Shown here: positions 26,329 to 51,504 of the stretch, in pieces
Layout: each line of letters starts with the position of its first letter
Position numbering within the stretch: position 1 is the stretch's first letter
From: an uncultured Chthonomonas sp.
Lineage (GTDB): Bacteria > Armatimonadota > Chthonomonadetes > Chthonomonadales > Chthonomonadaceae
Direction of reading: 5' to 3'
NCBI GenBank assembly: GCA_903919615.1
Contig: CAIXIX010000588.1
Location: 22,324 to 86,323, forward strand
DNA length: 64,000 nucleotides
Made by a program: the position numbers and the translations under genes
Notes under the pieces: generated by a model
The model's input: only the letters and a program-made list of their open reading frames with translations
Databases searched by the model: none
What the model was told of the DNA's origin: nothing

Positions 26329-26338
26329 TATGGCCAGC

Positions 26339-33816: not shown

Positions 33817-34479
33817 TTATCGCTGTGACGTATTTTTCGCTGCTAGGCGGCGACGCCTAAGAACTGACCAACCGCTGATACCAAGACCCATAACCATTGC
33901 TACGGCGCCTGGTTCTGGTGTTCTGGCCTGGCCATAGATTTGGAACGACTCCGAGTTCGTGCCTGGATATACGACATTTGTAAACATCGAAGAGGTTGGG
34001 CCATTGTTGTTATCCCAGTAGCCTCTTCCTCCACGCGACAATTGCGCCTGGCCAAGTGTAAGCCAGTATGTACCCGGCGCCAGATCGGCATTAATGAGGA
34101 AGCTGTATTCTGAACGATCCCATTGATTTTGATAATTTCCGAACACCAGCGTATCAATAGTCGCTGCAGATGTGCCCATCGCGATGTCGTTGGCTTGAGG
34201 CTGCGTTCCAATTTTCCACGTAACGGAAGTTAGGACATTACCAACGTCTGTCCAAATGCCAGCAGTAACCGAGTGAAGACTCGCGGAGTTGATTAGGCTA
34301 AACGCGTCCGATGCGTCATACGTTGTGTCAATGGCGAACGCACTTGCAGGAAATCCTGGCACCGGTCCGTCCCTGTACATCGGTCCGTTATCAAAAAGGA
34401 GCTGATCCGCTTTTGCCGAGCTGCTAGTCATTACCACAAGCAATAGGCCAATACCGATAAAACTGGATAATCGAAGCAT
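33817..34479 (-). CDS. PEP-CTERM sorting-domain secreted protein
   Basis: Track ORF trimmed to ATG 34479, giving signal MLRLSSFIGIGLLLVVMTSSSAKA. C-terminus TPEPGAVAMVMGLGISGWSVLRRRRL. Confidence 0.75.
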   Translation of the reverse strand: MLRLSSFIGIGLLLVVMTSSSAKADQLLFDNGPMYRDGPVPGFPASAFAIDTTYDASDAFSLINSASLHSVTAGIWTDVGNVLTSVTWKIGTQPQANDIAMGTSAATIDTLVFGNYQNQWDRSEYSFLINADLAPGTYWLTLGQAQLSRGGRGYWDNNNGPTSSMFTNVVYPGTNSESFQIYGQARTPEPGAVAMVMGLGISGWSVLRRRRLAAKNTSQR

Positions 34480-34596: not shown

Positions 34597-34627
34597 AGTA
34601 TCGATACAAAGCGTGGCAAAAAGCGTT
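34597..34627 (-). promoter_or_regulatory. CACGCTT-type direct-repeat box plus GATACT upstream of PEP-CTERM gene 33817..34479
   Basis: Minus strand reads AACGCTT (34627..34621), 5 nt, CACGCTT (34615..34609), 6 nt, GATACT (34602..34597). Confidence 0.55.
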
Positions 34628-34760
34628 GCAAATTTCCGATGATTTGCGGACCGACCCACCATTAAGCAGCTTTTTTGTGGATCACCTTTACTATATTCAG
34701 CGGCGGTAGTTACGCATTTTGGTAATTTTGATCGCCTGATCGCAATTGACCCGAATATGC

Positions 34761-34791
34761 CACGCTTTTTGCCACGGTTGACCGTGATAAT
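34761..34791 (+). promoter_or_regulatory. CACGCTT-type direct-repeat box plus GATAAT upstream of frameshifted PEP-CTERM gene
   Basis: CACGCTT (34761-34767), 5 nt, CACGGTT (34773-34779), 6 nt, GATAAT (34786-34791). Confidence 0.55.
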
Positions 34792-34872
34792 GTGTACATG
34801 CCTGGCTCTGCTGCCCACGAGCGCAGGTTTACAGATTCAACAGCTTGCTCAGTGGTTGAAAGGAGATTTTCT

Positions 34873-35849
34873 ATGAGGGGGGATTTTCCCAAACATCTCG
34901 TTTTTGGGCTAATGCATCGCACGACCATGGTTGCAGCGGCAGCCTTTGCTTGCAGCACCTCTGCAAGAGCGCAATTCATAACTCTGAACGACCCGCTGGC
35001 AACGAACGGGACGTATGCAACTGGAATATCGGATCAACGATAGTTGGCAGCTACTACATCGCTTTCGGTATTCCTTATCCTTTCGAGTACGTGAACGGCG
35101 TCTACAGTTCCATTCCGGACGCTGTTGGAGCACGACAATCGGAAATGGTCTCCATATCAGGAAACACCGGACTCGGATGGTATGAGGACCATTCGACGCT
35201 GCAGCACTACTGGTATACAAGATCAGGCGGCGTGAACTCAATTGTTACCGATTTTTCACCACCGTACGGTCTTGACGCTAGCCTCACGGGAATATCCGGG
35301 AACAACCTGATTGGCTACACGAATGGAGGGGGCAGCAACTACTACGGGCTGTTTTACGACGGCAGCACAACAGTTGACCTAATTGAACATGCCGGCACCG
35401 ACACGTATGCGTTAGGCGTTGACGGAACGAACGTCGTTGGCGAGATCTTAGTGGCAGGCCCAGCTACTCAGAGCTTCCTTTACAATGCTCGCACGTTTAC
35501 GCCACTAATCGACCCACTTGCCTACGGGGAGACCATCGCTCGCGGGATATCCGGCGCAAACATCGTTGGCGATTATACGGATATGACAACTGAACACGGG
35601 TTTATTATTAACGCTACGAGATGGACTACGTACGACGTTCCGGTGGCTGAAGCCGTACAAACAGAGATTCAGGGCATATCTGGAAATACGATCTATGGGC
35701 AATACTTCACACACAACAGCCAGCTATACGGATTCGTGGATACTCTCAACCTATCCCCTTCATCCACTCCCGAGCCAGGAAATGTCGCAACTCTGATCGG
35801 GATAACTATTACCGCGGGCCTGGCGATTCAGCGCAGGCGCATTCGGTAA
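34873..35849 (+). pseudogene. HAF-like repeat PEP-CTERM protein, frameshifted near 35031
   Basis: ATG 34873 (GAAAGGAG upstream) gives signal ...AAAAFACSTSARA, then QFITLNDPLATNGTYATGIS. That frame stops at 35041-35043. The protein continues in the next frame as STIVGSYY... to TPEPGNVATLIGITITAGLAIQRRRIR. One extra G in TCGGA (35029-35033) would restore GISGSTIVG, matching the internal GISGxxIVG repeats. Confidence 0.65.
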
Positions 35850-35988: not shown

Positions 35989-36086
35989 GCGGCTGTAGCA
36001 TACTCCTGACAAGCGCACTCCACCCTTTGACAATCGCGTCGAAACTCACTCGACGGCTGAACTCGGGAGCCTTGTCGGGAGGGATC

Positions 36087-39000
36087 ATGCACCCCATATT
36101 CAAGACACTGGCAAGACTTCTGCTCTGCACAGCATTGTGCGCCACCAGCATCTGTTCAATGGCCGAAAGTCCTGCAGCGCACGTCAACAACAGCAGCAAG
36201 CCATCCATCCATGCGACGGTCTCAGGCCCAAAGGGCCGCCATCGTATCGTGAACGGCGGAGCCGCAAGCCGGCTTCGGCACATCCCGCTGGTTTTTGAAA
36301 CAAACCGCGGTCAGACAGATCCACGTGTAGCATTTTTGTCCCACAACGCAGGTTCGGGCCTGTTTCTCTCAGCTACCGAAGCCACCTTTTCTGCGCCTGC
36401 AACCGAGCCTAACAAGAAGGTTTCAACGATTCGTATGAACCTGTTGAAGGGTAATAGCCGTGCAGTTATGCACGGCGATGGAGTGGCGAGCAGTAAAGTT
36501 AACTACATCATCGGCAACGACCCAAAGCGATGGAAAACCGGTATCGAAGGCTACGGCCGTGTGCGCGCCGACAATGTCTATCCTGGAATTGACCTCGCAT
36601 ACTATGGCAACGAACAGCAGCTTGAATATGATTTCATTGTTGCACCCCACGCAGATCCAGACGCGATAAAGTTCGCATTTGATGGAGCCAGATCCGTTAA
36701 GCTGAACCATAAAGGCGACCTGATTATCAGTACACGGGGCAGCTTGATGAGCTGGCATCGCCCCGTAACGTATCAGCAGATTAATGGGAAGCGGGTTCCC
36801 ATAGATTCTCGATACACGCTTTCTCGAACAGCGACGATCCGAGCATCCGGTCGGCGAATTTCCGCCCACTCCTCGGTTCAGGTGGCGTTTGAGCTGGGCA
36901 GATACGATAGAACCAGACCTCTTATCATCGATCCGACGCTCGCCTACTGCTCCTATCTCGGCGGAAATGGTTCAGACCTCGTTACTGGCGCAGCCATGGA
37001 TGGTTCCAACCATTTCTATATTACTGGCCACACTTACTCTAACAATTTCCCAACGGTCAACGCCTATCAACCAACAAACCTGACCTATACGTCCAGCCCA
37101 TATTCCGGTGGTTTTACAGGCTTTATCGCCAAAATGGATCTATCGCGAGCCGGCGCGTCGTCAATGATCTACTGCACCTATATTGGGGGCACCCAGGGAG
37201 CCTGGCCATACGGCATCGCGGTTGATCCCACCGGCAACGCCTACATAACAGGAGGCACTGCGTCACCCGACTTCCCGCTTGTGAGAGCCTATCTTACATC
37301 CAACCCGGGAAGCCAGGGGTTTATCTTTAAGCTGAGTCCGGACGGCTCAACGCCCTTGTACTCGACGTTTTTTGGCGGCGCAACCGGCGGTGCTCCCCCT
37401 ACTGCAATTGCCGCAGATGGGTATGGGCAAGTTTACGTAGCCGGCACCACCTATGCGAGCGATCTGCCTACAAGCGTGACCTCTTTTAAAGCGCATACCG
37501 TAGGTTCATCCGCTTTTCTCGCCAAACTCAACACCCTCCTGTATGGCCCGGCATCCCTCATCTACTGCACATACATTGGTGATCCGACGATCCTTCTTGG
37601 CCGCGAAACCGCGACCGGGGTCGCTGTAGACAGCCTTGGCCACGCCTACATAACTGGAGTCACTCTTACCTCTACTTTTCCGATTCTCGGCGGATTTCAA
37701 TCGGGGTATGGCGGCAATACTCTGCGCGGCGCTGGCGACGGTTATCTTGTAAAACTCAACATCGGTGGGACGGGTCTGCTCTACTCCACCTTTATCGGCG
37801 GCACAGGGACTGATCAACCCAATGCGGTTACGGTGGATGCAACGGGAAACGCATTGGTCGTTGGGCAGACGGATTCGACCGACTTCCCGATTTACAATGC
37901 TTTCCAGCCAACAAACACATCCCTACTTTCGGCCTTCGTTACGAAAATCAATACGAATGCGGTCGGCAGCGCTTCTCTCATGTGGTCCACGTATCTTAGT
38001 GGTGGATACTACAACTACGCCTATTCGGCTGTCTACGATACTTCTGGAAATGTGTATGTTGGCGGTTCAACAACGTCTCTGGATTTTCCCGTTACACAGT
38101 TGTTTCCGCCAAATGTACCAGGACAGGGAGGAGCATTCGTCACAGAGATCGCCGCTGATGGGTCACATATAATGTACTCCACCGCTATCAGCGGGTGGAC
38201 CGGAGACTGCTTCGGCGGCTATATAGCGATTGATACGAGCGGGTCGATCTACCTGACTGGCTTCACGAGAGACGATTCGGGGCTGCCCATAACCTCTGCA
38301 AATGCGTTCCAGCCTGCCCATGCGAATGACGAATCTGCGCCCGGATATCTTGAGGACTGTTTCGTGGCTAAGATTGTGCCGGACTCACTAGACCTGGCTC
38401 TAACCGAAGTAAGCAGCGCTCCCGGAATTGCCCGCGGAAGCAGTGTTAAGTACACGCTTGCGGTCAAGAATAATGGGCCGGTTACGGCGACCAACGTGGT
38501 ACTGAGGGATGCGCTGACGAGCAACTTCGATCCCGATAGTCCGTTCAGTTTCGGCGTACTGAGCACGACAACTCCTCAGGGCTCCGTGACGGTATCAGGC
38601 GGAAATGTTACGTTCAATATAGGAACGATCAACTCAGGACAGACGATTGTGGTGACCGTCACGGTCGGCACATCGGGAGTTGGCTTCGGATCCATCACCA
38701 GCGCAGCGACAGTAACCTGTGATGAAAGAGATTCAAATCTAACAAACAACTCCGCATCCATAGGCACAAGCGTCTTAAGGCCCACTCCAACACTGCTGTT
38801 ACTAAACCCATCTACGGTATCGGCCGGAGGCGGTTCCTTTACACTAAACGTGACTGGAACAGATATCCCGAGTGGTGCGCAGGTAGCGTTCAACGGATCG
38901 ATACTGCCCGGAAGCGTTGTTCTCTCAAGCACCCAGATATCGGCGACGGTGCCTGGATCGCTGGTTACAACAGCGGGAACTGCACACATTACGATCGTAG

Positions 39001-39356
39001 GTCCATCCGGCGCTGTATCCAATGCCGGTGTGCTGCTCATTGGCACGCCTGCGCTGCGTGCTGCCGTAAGCGTTTCGCACATTCCGTTAGGCGGTTTCAA
39101 GGCAACCATCACCTTCACTAATTCGGGCTCGGGACCAGCAAACAGCATTCAGATTACTGGATGCACGCTGCATTCGATTGGCACCACAAGCTCTCTGCCA
39201 TATACCGTTGGGACACTGTCTGCGGGGAGTTCAGCAACCGCATACCTGAACTTCCCCAGTTCGGCTGGCTCCAGCGGACTGACGACAACGATGACAATCA
39301 CTGCTGCCTATGCCGGCGGAACCTTCTCCAGCACGGTGCGGGTTACGCTGCCGTAG
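36087..39356 (+). CDS. Large secreted SBBP beta-propeller-repeat protein with DUF11 and IPT/TIG-like domains
   Basis: ATG 36087 (GGGAGGG upstream) gives signal MHPIFKTLARLLLCTALCATSICSMA. Many units of the type GIAVDPTGNAYITGGTASPDFP. DUF11-like LAVKNNGPVTATNVVLRDAL. Ig-like C-terminal domains. Confidence 0.8.
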   Translation: MHPIFKTLARLLLCTALCATSICSMAESPAAHVNNSSKPSIHATVSGPKGRHRIVNGGAASRLRHIPLVFETNRGQTDPRVAFLSHNAGSGLFLSATEATFSAPATEPNKKVSTIRMNLLKGNSRAVMHGDGVASSKVNYIIGNDPKRWKTGIEGYGRVRADNVYPGIDLAYYGNEQQLEYDFIVAPHADPDAIKFAFDGARSVKLNHKGDLIISTRGSLMSWHRPVTYQQINGKRVPIDSRYTLSRTATIRASGRRISAHSSVQVAFELGRYDRTRPLIIDPTLAYCSYLGGNGSDLVTGAAMDGSNHFYITGHTYSNNFPTVNAYQPTNLTYTSSPYSGGFTGFIAKMDLSRAGASSMIYCTYIGGTQGAWPYGIAVDPTGNAYITGGTASPDFPLVRAYLTSNPGSQGFIFKLSPDGSTPLYSTFFGGATGGAPPTAIAADGYGQVYVAGTTYASDLPTSVTSFKAHTVGSSAFLAKLNTLLYGPASLIYCTYIGDPTILLGRETATGVAVDSLGHAYITGVTLTSTFPILGGFQSGYGGNTLRGAGDGYLVKLNIGGTGLLYSTFIGGTGTDQPNAVTVDATGNALVVGQTDSTDFPIYNAFQPTNTSLLSAFVTKINTNAVGSASLMWSTYLSGGYYNYAYSAVYDTSGNVYVGGSTTSLDFPVTQLFPPNVPGQGGAFVTEIAADGSHIMYSTAISGWTGDCFGGYIAIDTSGSIYLTGFTRDDSGLPITSANAFQPAHANDESAPGYLEDCFVAKIVPDSLDLALTEVSSAPGIARGSSVKYTLAVKNNGPVTATNVVLRDALTSNFDPDSPFSFGVLSTTTPQGSVTVSGGNVTFNIGTINSGQTIVVTVTVGTSGVGFGSITSAATVTCDERDSNLTNNSASIGTSVLRPTPTLLLLNPSTVSAGGGSFTLNVTGTDIPSGAQVAFNGSILPGSVVLSSTQISATVPGSLVTTAGTAHITIVGPSGAVSNAGVLLIGTPALRAAVSVSHIPLGGFKATITFTNSGSGPANSIQITGCTLHSIGTTSSLPYTVGTLSAGSSATAYLNFPSSAGSSGLTTTMTITAAYAGGTFSSTVRVTLP

Positions 39357-39415
39357 ATAGGTGATTAGGTAAGTTGGTAAATTGGTAATTGGGCGGTTTG
39401 ACGGATTGTTTATTG
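39357..39415 (+). repeat. G/T-rich short tandem tract, copy B5
   Basis: ATAGGTGATTAGGTAAGTTGGTAAATTGGTAATTGGGCGGTTTGACGGATTG, starting immediately after stop 39354-39356. Confidence 0.7.
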
Positions 39416-39433
39416 CAATTTGGTACTTGGACG

Positions 39434-39463
39434 GAAGCGGCGTCTATCGGTAGGCGCCGCTTC
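39434..39463. terminator. 9-bp hairpin between convergent genes
   Basis: GAAGCGGCG-12 nt-CGCCGCTTC, between stops 39356(+) and 39488(-). Confidence 0.5.
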
Positions 39464-39487
39464 TGAACCAAATCAAGACCAAAAACC

Positions 39488-42400
39488 CTACTCACTCAGC
39501 GCGATTTGTGCCGCGCTATTCAGATCCATACTGCCTCCTTGAAGAACTAATGCTCTAAAACGCGCTTCTCCTATCCCCTCAGCAATAGCTGCTGAGGTCC
39601 GGGTAAATCCGGATCCTGGAGGCGCAAGACGCAGCCGCATTCTCTCTGCAGCGCACCAGCCACAAAGCAGCGCAGCCTCCTCATTGAATCCAAGCAAGTT
39701 TCTGAGGTTCGCGCTTTCCTCAATACACTTGAGTATGCCGACTCGAAAGTCGATCTCAAGTGCGAGGTTGAGCGACTCATGGAGTGATGCCCGTGCCCTC
39801 TCGTACTGTCCAATTTTCATCGCTACAAGAGCGATCCCGGTATGCGCTTCGGATATTCCCCCCTTGCTGCCCGTCGACTGATGATGCTTGAGGGTAGCCG
39901 CAAAACAGGAGAGAGCCTCGCTATACTCTCCTCGCGCCAGGTGAACTTGACCCAATCCATATCTAGCCTCAAACTCCACCCGCGGTTGGCCGGTTTCAAT
40001 CGAGAGCTCTATTGCCTTAAGGCTGTTGGAATAAGCTGCGTCCAGATCGCCCATTTCTCGGTAGATATACTCTAGCCTCGATCGCACGTTGGCTTCGCTG
40101 TATTTGTTGCCAAGTCGCGTCACTAGTTCAACGGCTCTGAGGCATACAACCAGCGCGGCCTCCAAATCACCTTTGAGAATGTATACATATGCAAGAGCCG
40201 AGAGTGCGCGAGCAATCTGGCTGTAATTCTTCAGCTGTTCGAGCAGGTCCAAAACAATATTGAACAGCTTCTCAGCTTCATCAAGCTCATTAACCAATCT
40301 CGACATGTTGGCGAGGCAGAGCACTGTTCTGGCGTGCAACTCCGTGTTTTGTTGAATCCCCTTATGCTCGTAAGCCCTTCGAAGATAGTGCATTCCATGT
40401 ATGAAGTAGGATCGAACATGCCAGAACCGCTCAAGCCCACATGCTAAGCTTGCAGCGAGTTCGCCTCCATCTGGATCCAGTAACGTTATCTCAAGGGCGG
40501 AGCGTATATTGGCGTATTCTGCAGCGACCCAGGCAACGCCCTGTTCAATTGGCGCCGTCCACGAGTTCCAAAGGCGGTGGTTCAGGTAAGTTGCGAAGTT
40601 TCGAACGAGCCCACGATGCTCCGGCAATGCTCTCAGCTTTTCGCCGGCATATTCGCGGATTGTATCGAGCATTCTGTAGCGAACTGAATCTCCGACTCGT
40701 TCCATTACGATCAACGAGCGGTCTACCAGTGCGCTCACCAGATCCATAATGGCTTCACGTTTGAGGGATGGGTACAATTCGTTCCGCGTGAATTCGCCGA
40801 TAGAAGGTGAGTGAGAGGAGTCAAAATCTGGAGGCTGCGAACTGCAGACCTGCTCAGCAGCCTCGAGCGTCCATCCGCCTGTAAATTCTGCGAGATAGGC
40901 GAGCAGCTTTTTCTCATCCTCTGTGAGCAGGACATAGGACCAATCGACCAGAGCTCTTAAAGTCTGCTGCCGTGGCATTGCGACCCTGCTGCCCGTGGTT
41001 AAAAGGCTAAACCGATCATTCAGCCGAGACTCGATCTGCTCCGGCGACAGGCTGCGTGTTCGAACCGCAGCAAGCTCAATCGCGAGCGCAATGCCATCCA
41101 ATCGCCGGCAGATGTTTGCGATTGAAGCAAGGTTCACCTGCGTAACACGAAACGTGGAGTTTGCTTCACGTGCACGCTGAACAAATAGCTGCACGGAAGA
41201 GTAGTCCAGCACGGTATCAACGGTCGGCTTTGAAACGGCCCCGGCATCTCCCACACCAATAGCCGGAGGAATCTCCAGTGTGGGCACCTGAAATACGCGC
41301 TCCCCGGAAATGTTGAGAGGCTGGCGACTGGTAGCAATTACCTTGAGAAAAGGAACTGCCTGGATCAGTTTATGAACCTGTAGTGCGCATGCGTCGATCA
41401 GGTGTTCGCAATTGTCAAGAATAACCAGGGATCTGCACTCCGCAAGGTTTTTCACTATGGCTTCAGAGAGTTCTACACCAACCTGCTCCGAAATCCCGGC
41501 CGCCTCTGCCATTACAATCGGCAGCATCGTTGGCTCCGAAACTGAAGCGAGATCGACAAAGAGAATCCCGTCCGTGTAAATTGCGTTTTGATGCTGGGCG
41601 ACATCCAGAGCCAGTCGCGTCTTCCCGATACCACCAGGACCGGTGAGCGTAACCAGCTTCGTCGAATTCAACAGGGAGACCACTTCGAGACGGGCATCTT
41701 CACGGCCGAAAAGAGTGGTCAGTGGCCTTGGAAGCGGCTTGAATTGTGTTGGCGTATGTTGAGGATTCGCAAACGTGGAACAACCACTGTCAACTGCGCG
41801 TGCTTTGCTCCGTATTGGCTCTGAATGCTGCGGTAGTGTGTGTCGTTCTCGAAGGATTTCGAACAGGGCCTGAGTTTCGGCATCAGGCTGCGTATTGAGC
41901 TCACCATGAAGGAGGAGGCGCAAATCACGATATGCCTTTATCGCCTCCGGGACATTGCCTGAGTTTGAGAGCGCGTGCATCAGAGTACGGTACGCCGACT
42001 CGTTGAACGCATCGGACGCGATCAGCTGCCGGGCGAAACCTGCTGCCTGTAGCCATGCGCCGGATTCTAGTGCGCTTGCGGCGAGCGCATCGAGTGCTAA
42101 TGCGTATTGCTGTTCGCGCAGCACACGGGCAGGTATGGCCCACTCTTCCGGGCATTCGACCAGCAGTGGGCCGCGGTACAGCGAAACGGCCTGCTTGAGC
42201 GAAGCAATATCACCATTATACAGTAACTGATCGAACTCAGTCAGGTCACAGACGACGCCTTCTCGTTCCAGACAAATGGTGCGATAGGATTCGGATTGAA
42301 TAAGTCTGCGGTAATCGCCCAGGTCGTTGTTTAGGTCGCTCAAAGCTCGGCGAAGATAGTAACGCGCCATTCCGGTCTCGGCATCTGGCCATAGGGCAGT

Positions 42401-42595
42401 GGAGAGCCACGCCCTATCAACCGGTTTGCCAAGGTTGAGCGCAAGAAGGCCGAGAAGCCACTGCTCCTTCCGGGTCTTGAGGACCATTGGGCCAGCGCCA
42501 GACAGCTCCAGAATGCCAAATAGGTTGATTGTTAGTTGTGCGGGGTATGATGCGTTGGTGGCGCCAGGCATTAGCTTCTCCGGTCGGCTCGCCAT
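39488..42595 (-). CDS. AfsR-like regulator: SARP winged-helix + BTAD + NB-ARC (STAND) NTPase + TPR array
   Basis: N-terminal LTINLFGILELSG...LWPDAETGMARYYLRRALSDL (OmpR-type wHTH). BTAD helices AYRTLMHALSNSGNVPEAIKAYRDLRLLL. Walker A GPGGIGKTRLAL. Long TPR C-terminus. Alternative start ATG 42571 has a better GGAG. Confidence 0.85.
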   Translation of the reverse strand: MASRPEKLMPGATNASYPAQLTINLFGILELSGAGPMVLKTRKEQWLLGLLALNLGKPVDRAWLSTALWPDAETGMARYYLRRALSDLNNDLGDYRRLIQSESYRTICLEREGVVCDLTEFDQLLYNGDIASLKQAVSLYRGPLLVECPEEWAIPARVLREQQYALALDALAASALESGAWLQAAGFARQLIASDAFNESAYRTLMHALSNSGNVPEAIKAYRDLRLLLHGELNTQPDAETQALFEILRERHTLPQHSEPIRSKARAVDSGCSTFANPQHTPTQFKPLPRPLTTLFGREDARLEVVSLLNSTKLVTLTGPGGIGKTRLALDVAQHQNAIYTDGILFVDLASVSEPTMLPIVMAEAAGISEQVGVELSEAIVKNLAECRSLVILDNCEHLIDACALQVHKLIQAVPFLKVIATSRQPLNISGERVFQVPTLEIPPAIGVGDAGAVSKPTVDTVLDYSSVQLFVQRAREANSTFRVTQVNLASIANICRRLDGIALAIELAAVRTRSLSPEQIESRLNDRFSLLTTGSRVAMPRQQTLRALVDWSYVLLTEDEKKLLAYLAEFTGGWTLEAAEQVCSSQPPDFDSSHSPSIGEFTRNELYPSLKREAIMDLVSALVDRSLIVMERVGDSVRYRMLDTIREYAGEKLRALPEHRGLVRNFATYLNHRLWNSWTAPIEQGVAWVAAEYANIRSALEITLLDPDGGELAASLACGLERFWHVRSYFIHGMHYLRRAYEHKGIQQNTELHARTVLCLANMSRLVNELDEAEKLFNIVLDLLEQLKNYSQIARALSALAYVYILKGDLEAALVVCLRAVELVTRLGNKYSEANVRSRLEYIYREMGDLDAAYSNSLKAIELSIETGQPRVEFEARYGLGQVHLARGEYSEALSCFAATLKHHQSTGSKGGISEAHTGIALVAMKIGQYERARASLHESLNLALEIDFRVGILKCIEESANLRNLLGFNEEAALLCGWCAAERMRLRLAPPGSGFTRTSAAIAEGIGEARFRALVLQGGSMDLNSAAQIALSE

Positions 42596-42671
42596 GTGGC
42601 GCCCGGGGCGATGCAGTTCATCACCAGATCAGACATTTTACCCTCTTGTAATGCAATTGGCTTAGAATATG

Positions 42672-42703
42672 CCACGCTTTGTGACACGCTTGCCTGCGAA
42701 AAT
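42672..42703 (+). promoter_or_regulatory. CACGCTT direct-repeat box plus -10-like hexamer upstream of NHL PEP-CTERM gene
   Basis: CCACGCTTTGTGACACGCTTGCC. Heptamers at 42673-42679 and 42685-42691. After a 6-nt gap comes GAAAAT at 42698-42703. Confidence 0.55.
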
Positions 42704-42813
42704 ACAGTTGGTGCCGCCAAATGTGTGCTTCTCTGGAGCCATTGGCAAAGCATCCCAATCTCTGAGGCATCGTGCCGTACGATCTTGCGATTGACGGCAA
42801 CAGGAGGCAGGCA

Positions 42814-43752
42814 ATGCTTGTGCTTTCTAAGGCTTCGACAACATGTCGACGCGTTACATTCTCTCGATTCCAGTCTTTCTGCAGCTTAGCTGCGGTTGCT
42901 CTGCTTATTCTGTGCGCCGCCGAAGCGAATGCGCAATTTCTGTATGAATCTGATGCCGGCACCGGAACCATTAACAGGTTCACATCATCCGGCAGCAAGA
43001 GCGTCTTTGCGACGGGATTCTCCTCTCCGAGAGGCATTGTATTCGACAGCAGCGGAAATGCTTACATATCTGAATACGGAGCCGGAGACATTGTCAAGAT
43101 TGCACCAGGCGGAGGGAGAAGCATCTTTGTAAATGACATAACTCTTCCAGAAGGTCTGGCATGCGATAGCAGCGGAAATATCTACGTTGCGGATTATTGG
43201 ACCGGCAACGTCATAAAAATCACGTCTGGGGGTTCAGAATCAATCTTCGCTTCTGGGTTCAATTCACCGAAAGGTATTGCCCTCAATAGCAGTGGCGATC
43301 TCTTTGTGGCATCTGAAGGGGACAACGGCATCTATGAGGTTACTCCGGGAGGATCCGTATCATTATTCGCCTCAGAATCAGCGCCACAGCATGTCGCAGT
43401 CGATAGCCATGGAAACCTGTACGGTACCGTTCAGGACCCAGGTTCGGTTGTAGAGATCAGTCAGGGCGGAGCAAATACGACGATTGGCACCGGATTTACC
43501 TATCCGTGGGGAATCGCGATCGATCCCAGCAGCAATATCTTTGCTTCGGATCTGTACGGAGGCACAATCAAAGAGTACTTCGCCGGTGGAGGAAGCACGA
43601 CGTTCGCTTCAGGGCTCAGCTTACCTGCCGACCTTACATATGTCCCCGGGCCAGCCACGAGTTCTACTCCGGAGCCAGGGACCTTCGCGATGCTGATTTG
43701 TCTGGGAGTAACTGGCACGGCGGTGCTGCGCAAAAGACGCAGATCTGTTTGA
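42814..43752 (+). CDS. NHL-repeat beta-propeller PEP-CTERM protein
   Basis: ATG 42814 follows AGGAGG. Signal ends AEANA. Six units like SPRGIVFDSSGNAYISEYGAGDIVKIAPGG. C-terminus TPEPGTFAMLICLGVTGTAVLRKRRR. Confidence 0.85.
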   Translation: MLVLSKASTTCRRVTFSRFQSFCSLAAVALLILCAAEANAQFLYESDAGTGTINRFTSSGSKSVFATGFSSPRGIVFDSSGNAYISEYGAGDIVKIAPGGGRSIFVNDITLPEGLACDSSGNIYVADYWTGNVIKITSGGSESIFASGFNSPKGIALNSSGDLFVASEGDNGIYEVTPGGSVSLFASESAPQHVAVDSHGNLYGTVQDPGSVVEISQGGANTTIGTGFTYPWGIAIDPSSNIFASDLYGGTIKEYFAGGGSTTFASGLSLPADLTYVPGPATSSTPEPGTFAMLICLGVTGTAVLRKRRRSV

Positions 43753-43761
43753 GACAGCTAA

Positions 43762-43790
43762 TCCTGGGCTTACGCGCTGTGAGCCCAGGA
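43762..43790 (+). terminator. Hairpin after NHL PEP-CTERM gene
   Basis: TCCTGGGCT-11 nt-AGCCCAGGA, 10 nt after stop 43752. Confidence 0.5.
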
Positions 43791-43998
43791 GCATGACAGA
43801 TAGCGCCCACCCTATGATAGTTTGTTCCACCTTATTGCCACAGGTTCGCACATCGCTCACATCCGGCAGGGAACGCATTTACTGTTCCCCCTTCCTTGAT
43901 CCCTTTTCCCTAAACGCGGTTTCCGCCAAACACGATGTATAATCTTTTTTGCTTTTGCAGCATCCATTTAGCAACTCAGACCACGCCCGGGAGTATCT

Positions 43999-44826
43999 AT
44001 GAATACTATCGCTCACCTTAACCCTGCCCTTGTGTCTCTGATTACGCAGATCGGTTCTCAGGTATTTGGAGCGATCCTGCTATGGATCGTTGGCCGATGG
44101 TTAATCGGATTTACAGTCCGCCTTGCAAACGCCGCATTAAATCGCCAGAAGGTCGATCCAACCCTGGCCAGTTATGTAATCTCGTCGCTCACTGGCCTGC
44201 TAAATGTGGTTCTGATCATCTCGATCCTTGGCGCGTTCGGCGTACAGACAACGACCTTTGCAGCAATCTTCGCTGCTTTCGGTCTGGCGATAGGCACCGC
44301 CTGGGGAGGGCTGCTCTCGAACTTCGCGGCAGGCGTGTTTATGGTGGTGCTGCGGCCGTTCAAGGTAGGTGAATTTATTGAAGCTGGAGGCGTCGTTGGC
44401 ACGGTCGTAGAGATCGGCCCTTTTGTCACCAAGATCAACGCGCCGGATAACGTTCTGAATATTGTAGGCAACAGCAAGATCTTCGCAGACAATATCAAGA
44501 ACTACTCCTTTAATGCCTATCGGCGAGTCGAGCTTGTGATGCAGCTCAATCACAATGCGAATGTTGGTGAAGTGATGACGCTATTAAAGTCGCGCCTCTC
44601 CGAGATCCATAACGTGATGACAGACCCGTCGCCCGATGTGGAGATCCTGGAGTTCAACCTCAGTGGACCCAAGCTTGCAGTGCGGCCCTACTGCCACAAT
44701 AAAGACTACTGGCAGGTCTACTTCGATACAAACCGATCCATCAACGACCTCGCTGCTGAGCAAGGTTACAGCACTCCGGAACAGCACCTGGTTATCCGAA
44801 GTGTGAGCGAAGTGAAAGCTGGCTAA
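43999..44826 (+). CDS. Small-conductance mechanosensitive channel (MscS family)
   Basis: Three N-terminal TM helices, then the MscS core GGLLSNFAAGVFMVVLRPFKVGEFIEAGGVVGTVVEIGPFVTKI. Confidence 0.85.
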   Translation: MNTIAHLNPALVSLITQIGSQVFGAILLWIVGRWLIGFTVRLANAALNRQKVDPTLASYVISSLTGLLNVVLIISILGAFGVQTTTFAAIFAAFGLAIGTAWGGLLSNFAAGVFMVVLRPFKVGEFIEAGGVVGTVVEIGPFVTKINAPDNVLNIVGNSKIFADNIKNYSFNAYRRVELVMQLNHNANVGEVMTLLKSRLSEIHNVMTDPSPDVEILEFNLSGPKLAVRPYCHNKDYWQVYFDTNRSINDLAAEQGYSTPEQHLVIRSVSEVKAG

Positions 44827-44998
44827 GAAGAGGGATGAGGTACGAGGGAAATGGGAACTGCGCACAATACAAGCAGCCGTTACCTCTGTTAGTGATCGGG
44901 ACCAGGGCATTGTTGGAGGGGAGGCGCATCGTGATTGATGTTCCGCCCCTTTTTTGTTGGTCCGCACTATCTCGATTAGACAAGTCATCCTCTGTTTA

Positions 44999-45030
44999 CC
45001 ACGCTTTGTGACACGCTTGCCCTTTATACG
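44999..45030 (+). promoter_or_regulatory. CACGCTT direct-repeat box plus -10-like hexamer upstream of HAF PEP-CTERM gene
   Basis: The same 23-mer as at 42672-42694. Heptamers at 45000-45006 and 45012-45018. After a 6-nt gap comes TATACG at 45025-45030. Confidence 0.55.
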
Positions 45031-45153
45031 GCCTCTGTTAGCTGCTTTTCGTCCCTTTTCACACATACTAGCCGGATTATCCATGATATCCAGATTTCGC
45101 GGCCGCAGCAAGCGGCGACCCTGCCAGGGATAATCGAGCAAGGAGGCCGTTCC

Positions 45154-45537
45154 ATGTTTTCTTTCACCACAACGCGCTCGCGAAGAAACTGTTTCAGGCT
45201 GTATTCAGCATTGGCTACAGTTTCTCTTCTTATGTGCGTAAGTCAAGCTCACGCTCAGTTCAAGATTCTGGACGATCCACTTGGAACCATCTACACGAGC
45301 CCAAACGGGATATCAGGTTGCATCGTCGTTGGCGACTATTATAGCCTGGCCGGGCAGCACGGTTATCTGTACAACATCTACGACGGGCAGTACACCACGT
45401 ACGATGTGCCAGTATTGGGCGCGCAACAGACGCAGATCAAGGCTGTAGACGGAAACGAATTCGTTGGTACGTTTTACGATAGCAGCAACCATATGCACGG
45501 TTTCGAAGACAGCTTTGGTGGAATACAGGGTGGCTAA
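45154..45537 (+). CDS. Short HAF-like repeat secreted protein, truncated by TAA just before its PEP-CTERM signal
   Basis: AAGGAGG RBS and a signal ending AHA. QFKILDDPLGT...GISGCIVVGDYY is paralogous to 34873..35849. The ORF ends at TAA 45535-45537. Confidence 0.7.
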   Translation: MFSFTTTRSRRNCFRLYSALATVSLLMCVSQAHAQFKILDDPLGTIYTSPNGISGCIVVGDYYSLAGQHGYLYNIYDGQYTTYDVPVLGAQQTQIKAVDGNEFVGTFYDSSNHMHGFEDSFGGIQGG

Positions 45538-45636
45538 CCCACACCTACCACTCCGGAGCCAGATGCTCTTGCCACCGTGCTTGGCCTCGGCATCACTGCT
45601 ATTGCTGCCATTCGGAAGCGGAGAAATATGCGCTGA
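45538..45636 (+). other. Orphan in-frame PEP-CTERM coding tail
   Basis: Directly after TAA 45535-45537, in the same frame: PTPTTPEPDALATVLGLGITAIAAIRKRRNMR, then TGA. This is a complete PEP motif with TM helix and basic tail. Confidence 0.7.
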
Positions 45637-47230: not shown

Positions 47231-50200
47231 TTAATGATCAGTTTCCAACAACGTGCCTACTTCGGCAAGGCAGTCGGCCCACGGATGCTCTTCTGATTGG
47301 CTCTCGTTGCTGCTTGACGACGTCAGGCGCTCCGGGCCGACTTTCTCCCAATACTCATCTACTATCCTAATTTCGTAAGGCATTAGCTCATATCCTAACT
47401 CAGCGTGGAGCGCAGTTGCCGATCCAAGCAGACGAAGTGCCGATTGGTTTTGGCCCTGTTCGATCGCGACACCGCATGCAATGATAAAGCCACACCATAT
47501 TGCACGACGCTGATCCGTGCGTATAGCCCTATCCCATACTGACTGACACAACGAACACGCGGCCTGGCTATCCTGTCTCATCATCGCGACAAGAGCCCTC
47601 ACGAGTACATTAGAAATCGCAATTTCAGATCTGGATGTGAGCTTCCCTATCTCCACGCTGTAATGGTCAACTTCCGCTCGATCTTCGCAACACAGCGCTA
47701 GTTTCAATCCCTGAATGAGCAGCTCTTTGCGGAGCCCCTTCCATTCTGGGGGACACATTGCGAGGGTCTCCTCCAGGCTGGCTTTTGCCTGGGAATAGTC
47801 TCTTTCAAATAACGCCAGCGTTACGTACTCCTGCCGAACATTGATCTGATTAATGACAGACGACTGAATGGAAGCTGCATATGTCATCGCCTCATCTAAC
47901 AGCTGCCTGCCTGCCTGATGCTCGCCGGTTTCGATGTGAATGCGTGCCAGACATGTGGCGGCCGCGCAGATATGCTCCTTATCACCTATCTCGCGATACG
48001 TCTCAAGGCTCATCGTTGCTTGATGCCGGGCAGATTTGACTAGTCCCTGCCAGTGCCGAATATCAGCGAGCGCCAATCGAAGTTTCGCTGTGCCCCAAGG
48101 ATCGTTTTTCTTGCGAGCGATACAGGTTTCAAGAAGTGCTCCAGAACGATCAAGATCCCCCTGTTCCGTATGGTGACCCGCCAGGTAAGCCATCGCGAGC
48201 AATACACCGTATTCATTGCCCTGTTGTGTGTATGCCACCAGCAACTCTTCGAGAATTTCTAAGCGTGTCTCCGGAAATTCCTCCAGCCCGCTAAGAGCCA
48301 GCAACGCCTCGGTGAATAGGGGATCGTTCTGTCTGTCTCGCAGCTCCCTGACAAGACTTCGAAGAATTTCGCGCCGTAACCCTGCCGTATCAGCATTGTG
48401 CGAATTCACCGTAATCGAAAGGCGCATTCCATGTGGAAGGGCTAGCTCCTGGCTTCGTACAAATGCCCGTTCCGCCCATTCTGTTCGCTCCTGCGGAAAT
48501 CCACGAACTTTCCAAAACCAGTCCATGTCGATAGCGAGCCTTAGCCCCGTCATTATGTCGCCGGCGGAAAAAGTGTGGCGCAATGCGGCTCGCAGATTTT
48601 CGCGCTCGCGTTCCAGCATATCGAGGTTTTTCGCTATTTCGTGTGCCTCACGTGGCTGAGAGGGCTCACAAAGAATGCGGAGGCGATTTAGGTGCACCTG
48701 ATAATAGGTAGCGTGAAGGTCCTGAAGGGTGCATCTCGAGTTGTAGTCTATCTGCTCCCAGGCGAATTCGCGCAGCGTTTCAAGCAGTCTAAAGCGCGGT
48801 TCGCCATCGATATCATCGCAACATGGCAGCGATTGTTCCTGTAACTCGATCAGAAGCGATCCTGCCGCGGCTGTCAATTCCTGAGAATTATCACCATCGC
48901 GCAGACAGATTGCGGCTGCGGCCTCGACAGTCCAACCGCCATGAAAGACTGAGAGAGCAGTAAAGAACGCCTGTTGTGGTGGTGTGAGCAGATTGTAGCT
49001 CCACTCCATTGTGGCTCGAAGGCATCGGTGACGAGGCGCCAGGTCCTGGTGTCGACCGCTAAGCCCCGCGAGATGTTGCTCCAACTGTGCTCGCATACGC
49101 GCCGGAGGAACGGTTCGTGCCCACGCTGCAGCCATCTCGATTGCGAGCGGCAAGCCTTCCAGCCGTCGGCACAGCGCAGCAACATGTTCAGCGTTGCCTG
49201 CAGTGAGCTCAAAATCCGGCTTTACTGCCTGTGCCCTGTCTACGTAAAGTGCTACGCAATCGAGTGCCTGAAGATTATTAATATTTTGGTGCTGCGACGG
49301 CACGGAAAGTGGTGAGATAGCGAATTCGCGTTCGCCATTCAAGCAAAGCGAGCGGCGAGAAGTAATCAGGCAAGTGAGAGCTGGCGCGCACTCCAATAGA
49401 GCACGTACAAATGCTGCGCCGTTAACGGGTCGACCATCACTCTCAATGGCGTCGCTTACGTCCTGCTTTAGAAGTTGCTCGTAGTTATCCAGTACCAGTA
49501 ATGTTGGCGCAGAACCAAGTGCACGAGCGATTAAGTCCATCACATTGATGCCAGGTTCCACTGTTAAATTTAGTGCCCCGGCCAGCGCAAAGGGAAGCAA
49601 GCGTGGATGCGAAATATCCGCCAGGCCAACATATCGGACGCCTCCTGGGAAGACACCGGCAAGTCGTTCAGCGACTTCTATCGACATCCGCGTCTTACCA
49701 ACACCTCCGGGCCCAGTTAAAGTGAGAAGCCGCAGCGCAGGCTTTGCAATTGGAGACAGGAGCACCGTGATTCGCTCAATCTCGATCTTTCGCCCAAAGA
49801 ACTGAGTTAGGCAGAGAGGCAATGCTGATCGAGGTGAACTAGTGGCAGTAGTGCTGCGCTGTTCAACCGCAGCATCACGCTGGACTTCTGCACCACGGGG
49901 CAGGTCGATTGGCGTGGATACCTGATGTTGAAAGGAGCCCGGATCCTGGCGAATGCGCTGCACCAGGTCCGAAACGATAGGTCTAGGAGCGAGGTTCAGA
50001 TCCGCTAGAAGTCGTCTGGATAGAACTTGCATTGACTCCAATGCTTCTGCAGTCCGACCCATACCGGCGAGTATTCGCATCTTTGCCGCACATGCAGCTT
50101 CGTCGTAACAATCGACTGCGATGGCGCAGTTAGCCGCATGCAGCGCAGATGGCAGATCCCCCAGTTGCTCGCAAGAATCAACCAGCATGGATAGGGCGGC

Positions 50201-50683
50201 GGAATACGTCAACGCTAGCTGTGCGCGCGCTTCGACTGCCCAATCGGCATATATTCCAGGCAGCAGCTCAGCCGTGTAGAGCTCCCTCGCCTGATCCAGT
50301 AGAGTTCGGCGATGCGCGTGCGCCTGTGTCTGGCCGGCCAGGCGGATCCGTTTTTCGAACTCACTGACATCTGTTGTAAAGGCACCTGTGTTGAGCGATA
50401 TTGTATGACGGTCCGCCATTACAATGTTTGTACCAACCTCACCTAGCGAGTTGAATAGACGACGCAAGCTGGCAAGGGTGGTACTAAGGTTATCTCGACC
50501 AGCGCCTTCATCCAGATGCGACCAGAAGATTTCAACCAGTTGTTCGCGCGGATGAGCACGCGGATACAAAGCCAGATAAGCCACCAGTGCACCCGCCTTG
50601 TTGGCGGGGATCTGAATTGCTTCTCCGTCTGCACCTGCCATGCGTGGTCCGCCCAACAGCTCAATATGTATGCAGCCAGTCAT
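47231..50683 (-). CDS. AfsR-like regulator: SARP winged-helix + BTAD + NB-ARC (STAND) NTPase + TPR array (second copy)
   Basis: IHIELLGGPRMAG...QLVEIFWSHLDEGAGRDNLSTTLASLRRLF (wHTH). BTAD helices ACAAKMRILAGMGRTAEALESMQVLSRRL. Walker A GPGGVGKTRMSI. Long helical-repeat C-terminus. Confidence 0.85.
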   Translation of the reverse strand: MTGCIHIELLGGPRMAGADGEAIQIPANKAGALVAYLALYPRAHPREQLVEIFWSHLDEGAGRDNLSTTLASLRRLFNSLGEVGTNIVMADRHTISLNTGAFTTDVSEFEKRIRLAGQTQAHAHRRTLLDQARELYTAELLPGIYADWAVEARAQLALTYSAALSMLVDSCEQLGDLPSALHAANCAIAVDCYDEAACAAKMRILAGMGRTAEALESMQVLSRRLLADLNLAPRPIVSDLVQRIRQDPGSFQHQVSTPIDLPRGAEVQRDAAVEQRSTTATSSPRSALPLCLTQFFGRKIEIERITVLLSPIAKPALRLLTLTGPGGVGKTRMSIEVAERLAGVFPGGVRYVGLADISHPRLLPFALAGALNLTVEPGINVMDLIARALGSAPTLLVLDNYEQLLKQDVSDAIESDGRPVNGAAFVRALLECAPALTCLITSRRSLCLNGEREFAISPLSVPSQHQNINNLQALDCVALYVDRAQAVKPDFELTAGNAEHVAALCRRLEGLPLAIEMAAAWARTVPPARMRAQLEQHLAGLSGRHQDLAPRHRCLRATMEWSYNLLTPPQQAFFTALSVFHGGWTVEAAAAICLRDGDNSQELTAAAGSLLIELQEQSLPCCDDIDGEPRFRLLETLREFAWEQIDYNSRCTLQDLHATYYQVHLNRLRILCEPSQPREAHEIAKNLDMLERERENLRAALRHTFSAGDIMTGLRLAIDMDWFWKVRGFPQERTEWAERAFVRSQELALPHGMRLSITVNSHNADTAGLRREILRSLVRELRDRQNDPLFTEALLALSGLEEFPETRLEILEELLVAYTQQGNEYGVLLAMAYLAGHHTEQGDLDRSGALLETCIARKKNDPWGTAKLRLALADIRHWQGLVKSARHQATMSLETYREIGDKEHICAAATCLARIHIETGEHQAGRQLLDEAMTYAASIQSSVINQINVRQEYVTLALFERDYSQAKASLEETLAMCPPEWKGLRKELLIQGLKLALCCEDRAEVDHYSVEIGKLTSRSEIAISNVLVRALVAMMRQDSQAACSLCQSVWDRAIRTDQRRAIWCGFIIACGVAIEQGQNQSALRLLGSATALHAELGYELMPYEIRIVDEYWEKVGPERLTSSSSNESQSEEHPWADCLAEVGTLLETDH

Positions 50684-50809: not shown

Positions 50810-50849
50810 CTTCGGAAATGCTTCGGAGTTATTTCAGAGTTCTTACGGA
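50810..50849 (+). promoter_or_regulatory. CTTCGGA heptamer direct repeats upstream of CBM PEP-CTERM gene
   Basis: CTTCGGA (50810-50816), 4 nt, CTTCGGA (50821-50827), then a degenerate CTTACGGA at 50842-50849. Phasing is 11 and about 21 nt. Confidence 0.4.
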
Positions 50850-50940
50850 GATGCCAATTATACTGGTGGAAGTGGCAAGTGCGGCGTATCCGCAGCTGCC
50901 TGGAAACACCTCTATACTTTGCAATGGAAGGATATTGCTA

Positions 50941-51504
50941 ATGCATCTCAGAAAGCTATGCCTTGCTGCACTGTTCGTTGGCGCAACATCTATGGCCCAT
51001 GGCCAAAACCTCGTTCAAAATCCCGGTTTCGAAACTGGAGATCTAACTGGTTGGGCGACAGTCGGCCCTGTCACAGTAGGTACTCCAGGAATTACGGGTT
51101 CATCTGCAGCCTATTTCGCTCAGGGCAATGCGTTCACTGACACGCTGACGCAGACATTGGCCACAACGACAGCAGCGGACTACGACGTCAGTTTCAATCT
51201 TCAAGGCACCAGCCAATTTGTAGACCTTCGAGTATACCTTGGGACCGGAGGTTTTCCAATCTACGAAGGGTTCGGCGCGCAAGATGGAGTGCACAACTTT
51301 ACCTATACTGCCACTACAAACAGCGACAATCTAGAGTTCTGGGCCGACTTCACTGGTGACACGTTTCTGCTTGACAATGTGAGTGTAACGCCACACACCA
51401 CTCCCTCCAGCACTCCTGAACCTGGCTCAGTTGCTCTTCTCATCGGGTTGAGCGCTACAGGAGCTGGTTTCCTCGGCCGCACTCGCCTACGAAAAACCCG
51501 TTAG
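50941..51504 (+). CDS. PEP-CTERM protein with CBM4/9-like carbohydrate-binding beta-sandwich
   Basis: ATG 50941 gives signal MHLRKLCLAALFVGATSMAHG. NLVQNPGFETGDLTGWATVG is a CBM-like opening. C-terminus TPEPGSVALLIGLSATGAGFLGRTRLRK. Confidence 0.8.
   Translation: MHLRKLCLAALFVGATSMAHGQNLVQNPGFETGDLTGWATVGPVTVGTPGITGSSAAYFAQGNAFTDTLTQTLATTTAADYDVSFNLQGTSQFVDLRVYLGTGGFPIYEGFGAQDGVHNFTYTATTNSDNLEFWADFTGDTFLLDNVSVTPHTTPSSTPEPGSVALLIGLSATGAGFLGRTRLRKTR

Follow-up and report, generated by a model that had tools for sequence, protein, structure and literature searches.

The 64-kb window analysed here (64,000 nt of a contig from an uncultured Chthonomonas sp., phylum Armatimonadota) carries a gene, termed reg1, for an AfsR-like ‘large SARP’ regulator, in which a SARP-type winged helix and a BTAD domain are followed by a STAND NTPase and a C-terminal TPR array. 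Taken as a whole, the locus is probably best explained if reg1 is a signal-gated factor of this type that acts by activation on four local promoters of PEP-CTERM genes. Most likely, it would control a small local regulon of exosortase cargo, and activation appears more likely than repression by analogy with characterised SARPs. The link from reg1 to its divergently transcribed neighbour, a gene for a secreted NHL beta-propeller with a PEP-CTERM signal, is supported by a predicted direct-repeat operator that is conserved and followed by a -10 hexamer. The features at this divergent spacer are as follows.

39488..42571, minus strand: reg1, AfsR-like ‘large SARP’ regulator gene, 1027 aa from Met9 (alternative start at 42595, 1035 aa)
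42646..42703, plus strand: predicted operator and promoter facing the NHL gene, with units A, B and C, then a -10-like hexamer
42646, plus strand: unit A (weak), TTGTAATGCAAT
42669, plus strand: unit B, ATGCCACGCTTT
42681, plus strand: unit C, GTGACACGCTTG
42698-42703, plus strand: -10-like GAAAAT, 5 nt after unit C
42814..43752, plus strand: target 1, secreted NHL beta-propeller with PEP-CTERM signal, 312 aa, with Shine-Dalgarno AGGAGG and signal peptide

A first-pass annotation of this DNA had placed a direct-repeat box of SARP-like geometry in the spacer and given the spacer a length of 218 bp. The repeat is real, with TGCCACGCTT at 42670 and TGACACGCTT at 42682 (period 12 nt), and it is conserved, but the spacing of the operator is 12/23 nt and not 11/22 nt. 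Likewise, the divergent arrangement stands, but the spacer more likely measures 242 bp (42572..42813), because Met9 is the start of reg1 in public gene calls (8 contigs) and has a GGAGAA Shine-Dalgarno sequence 5 nt upstream, whereas Met1 has none.

Across 13 divergent spacers, best-match profiles peak at offsets 12 and 23 (7.77 and 7.46 vs ~6.1 elsewhere), and the spacers follow a common design. Read on the strand of the divergent gene, it consists of a unit A of ~12 nt (consensus TGGnnACGCTTT), an 11-nt T/C-rich spacer, a unit B and an adjoining unit C, the starts of which lie 23 nt (A to B) and 12 nt (B to C) apart. In the aligned spacers, a -10-like hexamer (GATAAT, GATACT or TAGAAT) follows at a fixed 5 nt after unit C; the 12-nt unit thus ends 5 nt, and its ACGC core 8 nt, before the hexamer. 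SARP targets are defined by direct repeats that cover the -35 region and stand some 8 nt ahead of the -10 element, and conserved candidate boxes that fit this description are present here, with a period of 12/23 nt. In front of the NHL gene, we dropped the TACAGT at 42703-42708, which a promoter scanner had taken as the -10, in favour of GAAAAT (42698-42703) because the position of the latter matches the fixed distance found for GATAAT or GATACT in all other boxes.

For a leave-one-out test on 14 divergent spacers, 12 of them at relatives (33-41% identity), a position weight matrix (PWM) was trained without the tested locus. It recovered the operator in 10 of the 14 spacers at p<=0.012, mostly <=0.0005, and the operator of the NHL gene obtained a composite score of 18.3 bits (p<=0.0005). 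When the fetched loci (2.33 Mb) were scanned, composite scores reached >=20 bits only beside regulator start codons and on the opposite strand, bar one weak match. Furthermore, repeats are more alike within a locus than between loci (0.73 vs 0.53 identity; permutation p=2e-4), and this likeness concerns the variable 5' positions. The operator design also recurs in the divergent spacers of the regulators of relatives, with locus-specific variable positions and a varied secreted protein as partner. The recognition helix may co-vary with the variable box positions in this small sample, as YYLRR (reg1, P0014) is found with GCCAC/GTCAC (xCAC) boxes, and NNLRR, ANLRR or RNLRR with GGAAAC, GGATAC or GGCAAC boxes (A(A/T)AC for NNLRR and ANLRR). 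The predicted operator is specific to one clade, since distant NOD-TPR relatives from Actinomycetota, Chloroflexota and others, which made up most of the matches in broad scans of genome and metagenome contigs, have neither a PEP-CTERM system nor the box; on the coupling itself, these relatives give no information.

Within 11 kb around reg1, four copies of the operator occur, with the consensus (A/T)TGCCACGCTTT-(G/T)TG(A/C)CACG(C/G)TTG plus a -10 hexamer. The 20-nt core of units B and C, CACGCTTTKTGMCACGSTTK, has 4 copies in the window at <=2 mismatches vs 0.00 expected (100 shuffles). All four boxes are intergenic, correctly oriented and each face a PEP-CTERM gene. After each box come 5 nt, the -10 hexamer, a leader of 75-120 nt, a Shine-Dalgarno sequence and an open reading frame (ORF) with a signal peptide. 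An Rfam scan of the window gave no match, so the leaders contain no known RNA element. The boxes and the three further predicted targets are listed below.

Core 42673-42692, plus strand: box of the NHL operator, -10 GAAAAT, facing the NHL PEP-CTERM gene 42814-43752
44996..45030, plus strand: second box copy, TTACCACGCTTT GTGACACGCTTG, 5 nt, TATACG; core 45000-45019, facing 45154-45537
34757..34791, plus strand: third box copy, ATGCCACGCTTT TTGCCACGGTTG, 5 nt, GATAAT; core 34761-34780, facing 34873-35849
34597..34631, minus strand: fourth box copy, TTGCAACGCTTT TTGCCACGCTTT, 5 nt, GATACT; core 34608-34627, facing 33817-34479
45154-45537, plus strand: target 2, 127-aa signal-peptide protein; region with PEP-CTERM tail to 45636
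34873..35849, plus strand: target 3, PEP-CTERM gene, paralog of target 2, with a -1 frameshift near 35030
33817..34479, minus strand: target 4, PEP-CTERM protein of 220 aa, with ATG at 34479 and Shine-Dalgarno GAAAGG

Target 1, the divergent partner of reg1, had been described from the start as a PEP-CTERM NHL propeller, and all of these assignments exceed their cut-offs: NHL scores 61 bits, the NCBIfam model ScyE_fam 97 bits (cut-off 80), and the PEP-CTERM signal 21.0 bits with Pfam PF07589 (20.7) and 19.4 bits with TIGR02595 (16). Its homologs, taxonomically scattered and at best 36-39% identical, gave no clue to function or taxonomy. The first-pass annotation had named 45154..45537 as a second gene under the regulator, and this target 2 indeed carries a reg1-type box in front. 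Its frame ends at an in-frame TAA (45535-45537), directly followed in three-frame translation by a complete PEP-CTERM tail, PTPTTPEPDALATVLGLGITAIAAIRKRRNMR, which runs to 45636. An independent assembly (L001) shows no difference over 37730-45866, and since this range includes the TAA at 45535, the stop is not the error of one assembly; it could mark a pseudogenised anchor, a deliberately released variant or a site of readthrough. In target 3, the frameshift falls in a short G run (35025-35035), where one extra G turns GISD-QR* into GISGSTIVG, and gene callers split the gene into 56 + 234 aa. The reading restored by one more G is GISGSTIVGSYY. Possible causes of the split are an error in the assembly, decay to a pseudogene and phase variation of the slippage type. 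Target 4 obtained a TIGR02595 score of 18.9. A mechanically called ORF of 333 aa on its strand (33817-34818, minus) was rejected as over-extended, as its spurious N-terminal extension takes in the box at 34597-34631, and the real start is 34479. With the TAA-stopped gene included, there are six PEP-CTERM genes in the 64 kb, and the tails of all six were read directly.

The product of reg1 is composed of the following parts, with residue numbers as aligned or modelled.

42269..42538, minus strand: OmpR-type winged-helix DNA-binding domain, residues ~12-101 (AfsR/EmbR alignment, AlphaFold2 secondary structure, Foldseek)
42332-42370, minus strand: recognition-helix region, MARYYLRRALSDL
41837..42256, minus strand: BTAD (bacterial transcriptional activator) domain, residues ~106-245 (Pfam)
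40622..41716, minus strand: STAND/NOD NTPase with winged-helix subdomain, residues ~286-650
41618-41641, minus strand: Walker A, GPGGIGKT
41402-41428, minus strand: Walker B, LVILDNCEH
41066-41098, minus strand: GxP motif, DGIALAIELAA
40661-40681, minus strand: MHD-equivalent motif RYRMLDT, residues 631-637, with Leu at the His position
39491..40618, minus strand: C-terminal TPR array of ~17 helical hairpins (Pfam, AlphaFold2 helices 652-1025, Foldseek)

The architecture of AfsR, which the first-pass annotation had assigned to the ORF 39488..42595 (minus strand), is recovered in full, with winged helix, BTAD domain, STAND NTPase and TPR array, and with an end-to-end match to AfsR at the profile level. 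The individual Pfam models behaved unevenly. BTAD (73.5 bits, E=3e-20, PF03704 cut-off 22.1; residues 130-247 of the 1035-aa form) and TPR_12 (50.4 bits vs 30.1) lie above their cut-offs and TPR_MalT reaches 44.9 bits (cut-off 45), whereas the expected Trans_reg_C (16.6 bits vs 26.2) and NB-ARC (16.4 bits vs 23.5) remain below, as does AAA_22 (26.5 bits vs 27). We nevertheless accept the sub-threshold winged-helix and NTPase modules because phmmer, a family profile and structural modelling agree. With phmmer, reg1 matches AfsR (8k60) at E=2.6e-11 over residues 36-434 and EmbR (2fez) at E=8.6e-4 over residues 6-243. A family profile built from 29 sequences gives a single continuous alignment with AfsR (profile 7-953, AfsR 19-977, E=3.9e-62), from the winged helix through the last TPR, and the same profile matches EmbR at E=9.4e-21. 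The AlphaFold2 model of reg1 has a mean pLDDT of 85; with Foldseek, it matched the STAND-TPR protein 6mfv (E=1.3e-13), EmbR (root-mean-square deviation 3.8 A over 252 columns) and, further, Apaf-1, plant NLRs and LGN/Pins-type TPRs.

By its sequence, the NTPase of reg1 is clearly a STAND protein at the edge of the NB-ARC model, and ‘STAND NTPase’ is the safer label because the Pfam NB-ARC match is sub-threshold. In homologs of reg1, precomputed matches are to PF25872 (shown as HTH_77 in gene tables), and in some to nSTAND1 or NB-ARC. Judged by the NCBIfam equivalog model for AfsR, NF053617, which gives 83 bits on reg1 against a cut-off of 1430, the protein is AfsR-like and not an AfsR ortholog. 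Another deviation concerns the ‘HD’ switch of NLRs. The alignment of AfsR (RYRFHDLVRLYA) with reg1 (RYRMLDTIREYA), which is locally weak and anchored by flanking motifs, places Leu in reg1 at the His position, and the family consensus there is RYRLLET, i.e. His is replaced by Leu throughout the reg1 subfamily. The histidine of the NLR ‘MHD/F-HD’ switch holds AfsR and plant NLRs in the off state. If true, its loss would point to another way of keeping the off state.

The family to which reg1 belongs is large, with >7,400 database matches, and such proteins are routinely labelled ‘predicted ATPase/DNA-binding SARP family transcriptional activator’ by JGI. The SARP-NOD-TPR architecture outside actinomycetes is already common in databases; its function alone is undescribed. 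Because no ortholog of reg1 was found in the searched collections, where the closest non-self relatives are 34-41% identical, synteny was judged at the family level. The best named matches of the regulator come from Armatimonadaceae, Armatimonadetes and Chthonomonadaceae, as do those of a conserved DUF1501 protein of the window (73-77% identity). With its PSCyt1/PSCyt2/PSD1 and DUF1501 pairs and its six PEP-CTERM genes, the window is unlike the DNA of an actinomycete. Our neighbourhood sample comprised 16 regulators with a visible upstream neighbour: the two of the window (reg1 and a second paralog, reg2), those of Armatimonadota loci (L002-L005, L017, L069) and those on the contigs of the closest metagenomic homologs (L162-L170). 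The ORF calling behind the counts is crude. PEP-CTERM proteins were called by a motif, a hydrophobic stretch and a basic cluster; a simple regular expression was dropped, as it gave many false matches in high-GC out-of-frame ORFs.

Upstream of most of the 16 regulators lies a divergently oriented gene whose product is small and secreted or surface-located. PEP-CTERM partners face the two regulators of the window and those of L002, L164 and L168. The partner is a lipoprotein at L162, carries a signal peptide at L165, L166, L167, L169 and L069, a Tat-like signal at L004 and a membrane anchor at L005, and is a prepilin-type N_methyl/SBP_bac_10 protein at L170. PEP-CTERM proteins thus account for 5/16 upstream neighbours vs 4/193 other ORFs of the same loci (Fisher p=1.3e-4, or p=9.8e-4 without the focal pair). 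Since the PEP-CTERM partners of different regulators are not homologous to one another, the association is with secretion and sorting and not with one protein family. Read from these loci, the conserved association is that of a regulator with a secreted or surface protein of varied kind, with PEP-CTERM enriched. The synteny with PEP-CTERM genes that the first-pass annotation had proposed to survey in relatives therefore holds in part: PEP-CTERM partners are enriched, and the partners are otherwise mostly other secreted proteins. Two of the sampled contigs carry two SARP-STAND genes each, within a distance of 6-8 kb, at 1-2924 and 6001-9144 on L162 and at 1-1681 and 8001-11234 on L167, which suggests local family expansion. 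After the regulator on L162 come genes for a TPR protein (9170-10723) and for an unannotated 462-aa protein with a P-loop-like motif (10720-12108). A third paralog, P0010 at locus L164, apparently of the same population, faces another PEP-CTERM gene and has GGATAC-type boxes.

Analogy with AfsR, MalT and further STAND proteins suggests a mechanism for reg1. As a presumed sensor or autoinhibitory module, the TPR array would keep the NTPase off as long as no ligand or partner is sensed. On sensing, exchange of the nucleotide and oligomerisation would set two, perhaps three, SARP winged helices head to tail on the 12-nt repeats. The repeats would occupy the -35 region, with the last unit ending 5 nt before the -10 hexamer, and RNA polymerase would be recruited from them as in class-II OmpR, PhoB or SARP activation. 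As a result, the four surface-protein genes would be switched on by reg1.

Several observations weigh against this model. The assignment of the boxes to the protein is by linkage and by analogy with SARPs, and the period of the operator is 12/23 nt, whereas characterised SARP boxes have one of 11/22 nt. At each of the four sites in the window, unit A is weak. No reg1-type box was found in 4/14 spacers, namely those of reg2 (which has its own box), L162, L069 and L004. The loci on which the PWM was tested also served to build it; leaving out the tested locus lessens this circularity, but shared ancestry remains, and L165 and L166 are orthologous and not independent. Of the four predicted target genes, target 3 with its frameshift and target 2 with its stop ahead of the sorting signal seem to be disrupted, and no exosortase gene (EpsH/Xrt) was seen within the 64-kb window. 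Furthermore, an ordinary sigma-70 promoter is predicted at the second repeat, in which GTGACA makes a fair -35 hexamer; for this reason the promoters might fire without an activator, and the protein would then repress or fine-tune them.

The last point leads to the alternative in which reg1 does bind the boxes, yet chiefly blocks the -35 region and so represses the promoters or regulates its own gene. Unit C holds a reasonable -35 (5/6 matches) with a 16-nt spacer to TACAGT, and the box lies 75-100 nt from the reg1 start codon, where divergent promoters may overlap. However, every characterised SARP with such geometry activates (PMC11301090, PMC10972967), the BTAD domain is conserved, and in most relatives the repeat at the -35 position is poor compared with TTGACA (CGGTCA, TGGATA), as expected of activator-dependent promoters; on balance, we regard repression as quite unlikely. 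Somewhat more weight, although still unlikely, is due to the idea that the boxes are real but read by another factor, either an alternative or extracytoplasmic function (ECF)-type sigma factor with a -35 like TGnCAC or GGAAAC, or an unlinked OmpR-family response regulator, in which case the SARP-STAND link would be indirect. Indeed, the repeats resemble -35 elements (GTGACA, TGGAAA). Yet two to three tandem copies at fixed 12/23 nt together with a housekeeping-type -10 (GATAAT, GATACT) are unlike a sigma-factor promoter, and the element occurs within ~100 nt of a SARP-STAND start codon in ~10 unrelated contigs and nowhere else in their 6-10 kb flanks. In addition, the variable repeat positions differ by locus and the recognition helix may change alongside them, albeit in a small sample.

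The adjacency could also be coincidental, with reg1 regulating something else or nothing nearby, as PEP-CTERM genes are frequent locally (the six in 64 kb) and just five of the 16 related regulators have such a neighbour. We consider this very unlikely in view of the operator kept in the divergent spacers of relatives, the restriction of the boxes to four PEP-CTERM promoters in the whole window (expectation 0.00), and the significant enrichment of PEP-CTERM neighbours (p=1.3e-4, as above). Finally, a STAND NTPase joined to a TPR sensor, Foldseek matches to Apaf-1 and plant resistosomes, and a very large and diverse family would all suit an NLR-like anti-phage sensor of the Avs or bNACHT type that uses the SARP domain as effector. 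This is hardly credible for reg1: PADLOC gives a generic TPR match alone (E=4e-9) and no defence-system assignment, the match to the transcription factor AfsR runs over the whole length, the gene-proximal operator with its promoter is conserved, and no phage or defence genes lie nearby, the surrounding genes being those for surface proteins and an MscS channel together with housekeeping genes. We therefore retain activation of the four PEP-CTERM promoters by reg1 as the probable explanation.

Among characterised proteins, reg1 most closely recalls AfsR of Streptomyces coelicolor (PDB 8k60, 8jke, 8hvr), with which it shares the SARP-NOD-TPR order, the end-to-end alignment and the Walker A, Walker B and GxP motifs. 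AfsR binds direct repeats at afsS that overlap the -35 and lie 8 nt upstream of the -10 (PMC11301090), and in the predicted reg1 operator, too, direct repeats cover the -35 region and end shortly before the -10. The two differ in host, as reg1 belongs to a non-actinomycete (Armatimonadota); in repeat period (12/23 nt in reg1 vs 11/22); and in the switch motif, RYRMLDT in reg1 vs RYRFHDL in AfsR, where the F/Y-HD motif is reportedly highly conserved in 3,853 actinomycete AfsR-like proteins (bioRxiv 10.64898/2026.09.02.748808). Moreover, the predicted targets of reg1 are surface proteins instead of a small regulator (AfsS) or a biosynthetic gene cluster. The small SARPs (ActII-ORF4, DnrI, RedD, PapR2) have the winged helix and BTAD domain in common with reg1; they are cluster-situated, and the tandem direct repeats to which they bind replace the -35 in the promoters of neighbouring genes (PMC7040171, PMC10972967). 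However, they lack NOD and TPR modules, and their heptamers, at an 11-nt period, serve antibiotic operons of actinomycetes, whereas the predicted targets of reg1 are single genes for secreted PEP-CTERM proteins. SARPs are also defined as activators of secondary-metabolite clusters in actinomycetes, which does not describe reg1, as no biosynthetic genes lie near it in the window; this part of the definition is historical or functional, not structural.

EmbR of Mycobacterium tuberculosis (PDB 2fez, 2ff4) superposes on reg1 with its N-terminal winged helix and BTAD domain, but it ends in a C-terminal FHA domain, is controlled by Ser/Thr kinase phosphorylation and has neither STAND NTPase nor TPR array. 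GSU1771 of Geobacter sulfurreducens is, like reg1, a SARP-type DNA-binding regulator outside actinomycetes. It acts in a Gram-negative host, where it affects biofilm and extracellular-matrix genes, and is described with a receiver domain and no NOD-TPR; no defined link to a PEP-CTERM promoter is reported for it, as PEP-CTERM appears there in a reference alone (PMC10599522). With MalT and other STAND activators, reg1 would share the principle that sensor repeats gate an NTPase and that an oligomer places DNA-binding domains on repeated boxes, but MalT carries a C-terminal LuxR-type helix-turn-helix in place of the N-terminal SARP winged helix. For PEP-CTERM genes themselves, the PrsK/PrsR two-component system was reportedly tied to PEP-CTERM/exosortase loci by comparative genomics (Haft and colleagues, in 2006). 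This system, a histidine kinase with a sigma-54-dependent response regulator, has neither fold nor mechanism in common with reg1, and its link is to the exopolysaccharide (EPS)/exosortase locus instead of single cargo genes.

To our knowledge, the individual regulation of PEP-CTERM cargo genes is essentially unknown, and SARPs, AfsR in particular, have been studied almost only as actinomycete antibiotic switches. A literature search found no paper that links SARPs with PEP-CTERM genes, and nothing for Armatimonadetes, in agreement with the initial impression that a STAND switch driving PEP-CTERM cargo had not been described; the latest survey of AfsR-like proteins covers Actinomycetota alone (bioRxiv 10.64898/2026.09.02.748808). 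The locus thus offers a concrete predicted regulon for a SARP outside actinomycetes, with one operator, four promoters and an output of exosortase-sorted surface proteins, and this predicted role would be an undescribed one for the AfsR-like class. Our work extends a known mechanism to a new setting and proposes no new mechanism. The operator rule (units of ~12 nt, 23/12 spacing, -10 at 5 nt, locus-specific positions) is usable for target prediction, is applicable to hundreds of uncharacterised ‘predicted ATPase/SARP’ genes in metagenomes, and may help to read the specificity code of SARP recognition helices. Because cultivation of the host phylum is poor, regulons derived from sequence offer one of the few ways into its physiology. 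More tentatively, and with less than even confidence, we speculate that Armatimonadota-type bacteria have expanded the AfsR-like STAND family into ‘private’ cassettes of sensor, operator and surface protein, each with its own cue read by the TPR array, its own variant of the 12/23-nt operator, a helix and box that possibly co-evolve, and one or a few secreted, often PEP-CTERM-anchored outputs. If true, exosortase cargo would be deployed on demand, amounting to ligand-gated remodelling of the cell surface.

The second regulator of the window, reg2, has a box of its own, located in the spacer 50684-50940.

47231..50683, minus strand: reg2, divergent SARP-STAND paralog, 1150 aa, 26% identical to reg1
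50810..50864, plus strand: reg2-type box, four heptamers (C/T)TTC(G/A)GA
50941..51504, plus strand: PEP-CTERM protein of 187 aa, divergent from reg2, true start 50941

Pfam BTAD scores 47 bits on reg2, and the NCBIfam AfsR model matches it at E=6.9e-13. The array was found once the true start of its target, 50941, was used. Its heptamers begin at 50810, 50821, 50832 and 50843, at exactly 11-nt spacing, and extend to 50849; 9 nt later follows TATACT (50859-50864). In a shuffle test, the triple repeat reached p~0.001, and this is the sole site of the pattern in the window. The reg1-type PWM gave no match in the reg2 spacer, and 11-mers common to this spacer and the rest of the window occur at chance level only. 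By its sequence, the candidate reg2 box is of the classical SARP layout and distinct from the 12/23-nt operator of the reg1 type.

Two further features of the window deserve mention. A gene at 35979-39356 (plus strand), located between reg1 and the genes that carry boxes and itself without a reg1-type box, encodes a very large secreted protein with DUF7948, SBBP beta-propeller repeats, DUF11 and a choice-of-anchor Z repeat. In addition, PSCyt1/PSCyt2/PSD1 proteins (~1040 aa) are paired with DUF1501 proteins (~490-520 aa) at three places, 20072-24763, 24760-29437 and 52611-57654, a combination known as the ‘planctomycete cytochrome’ pair of unknown function.

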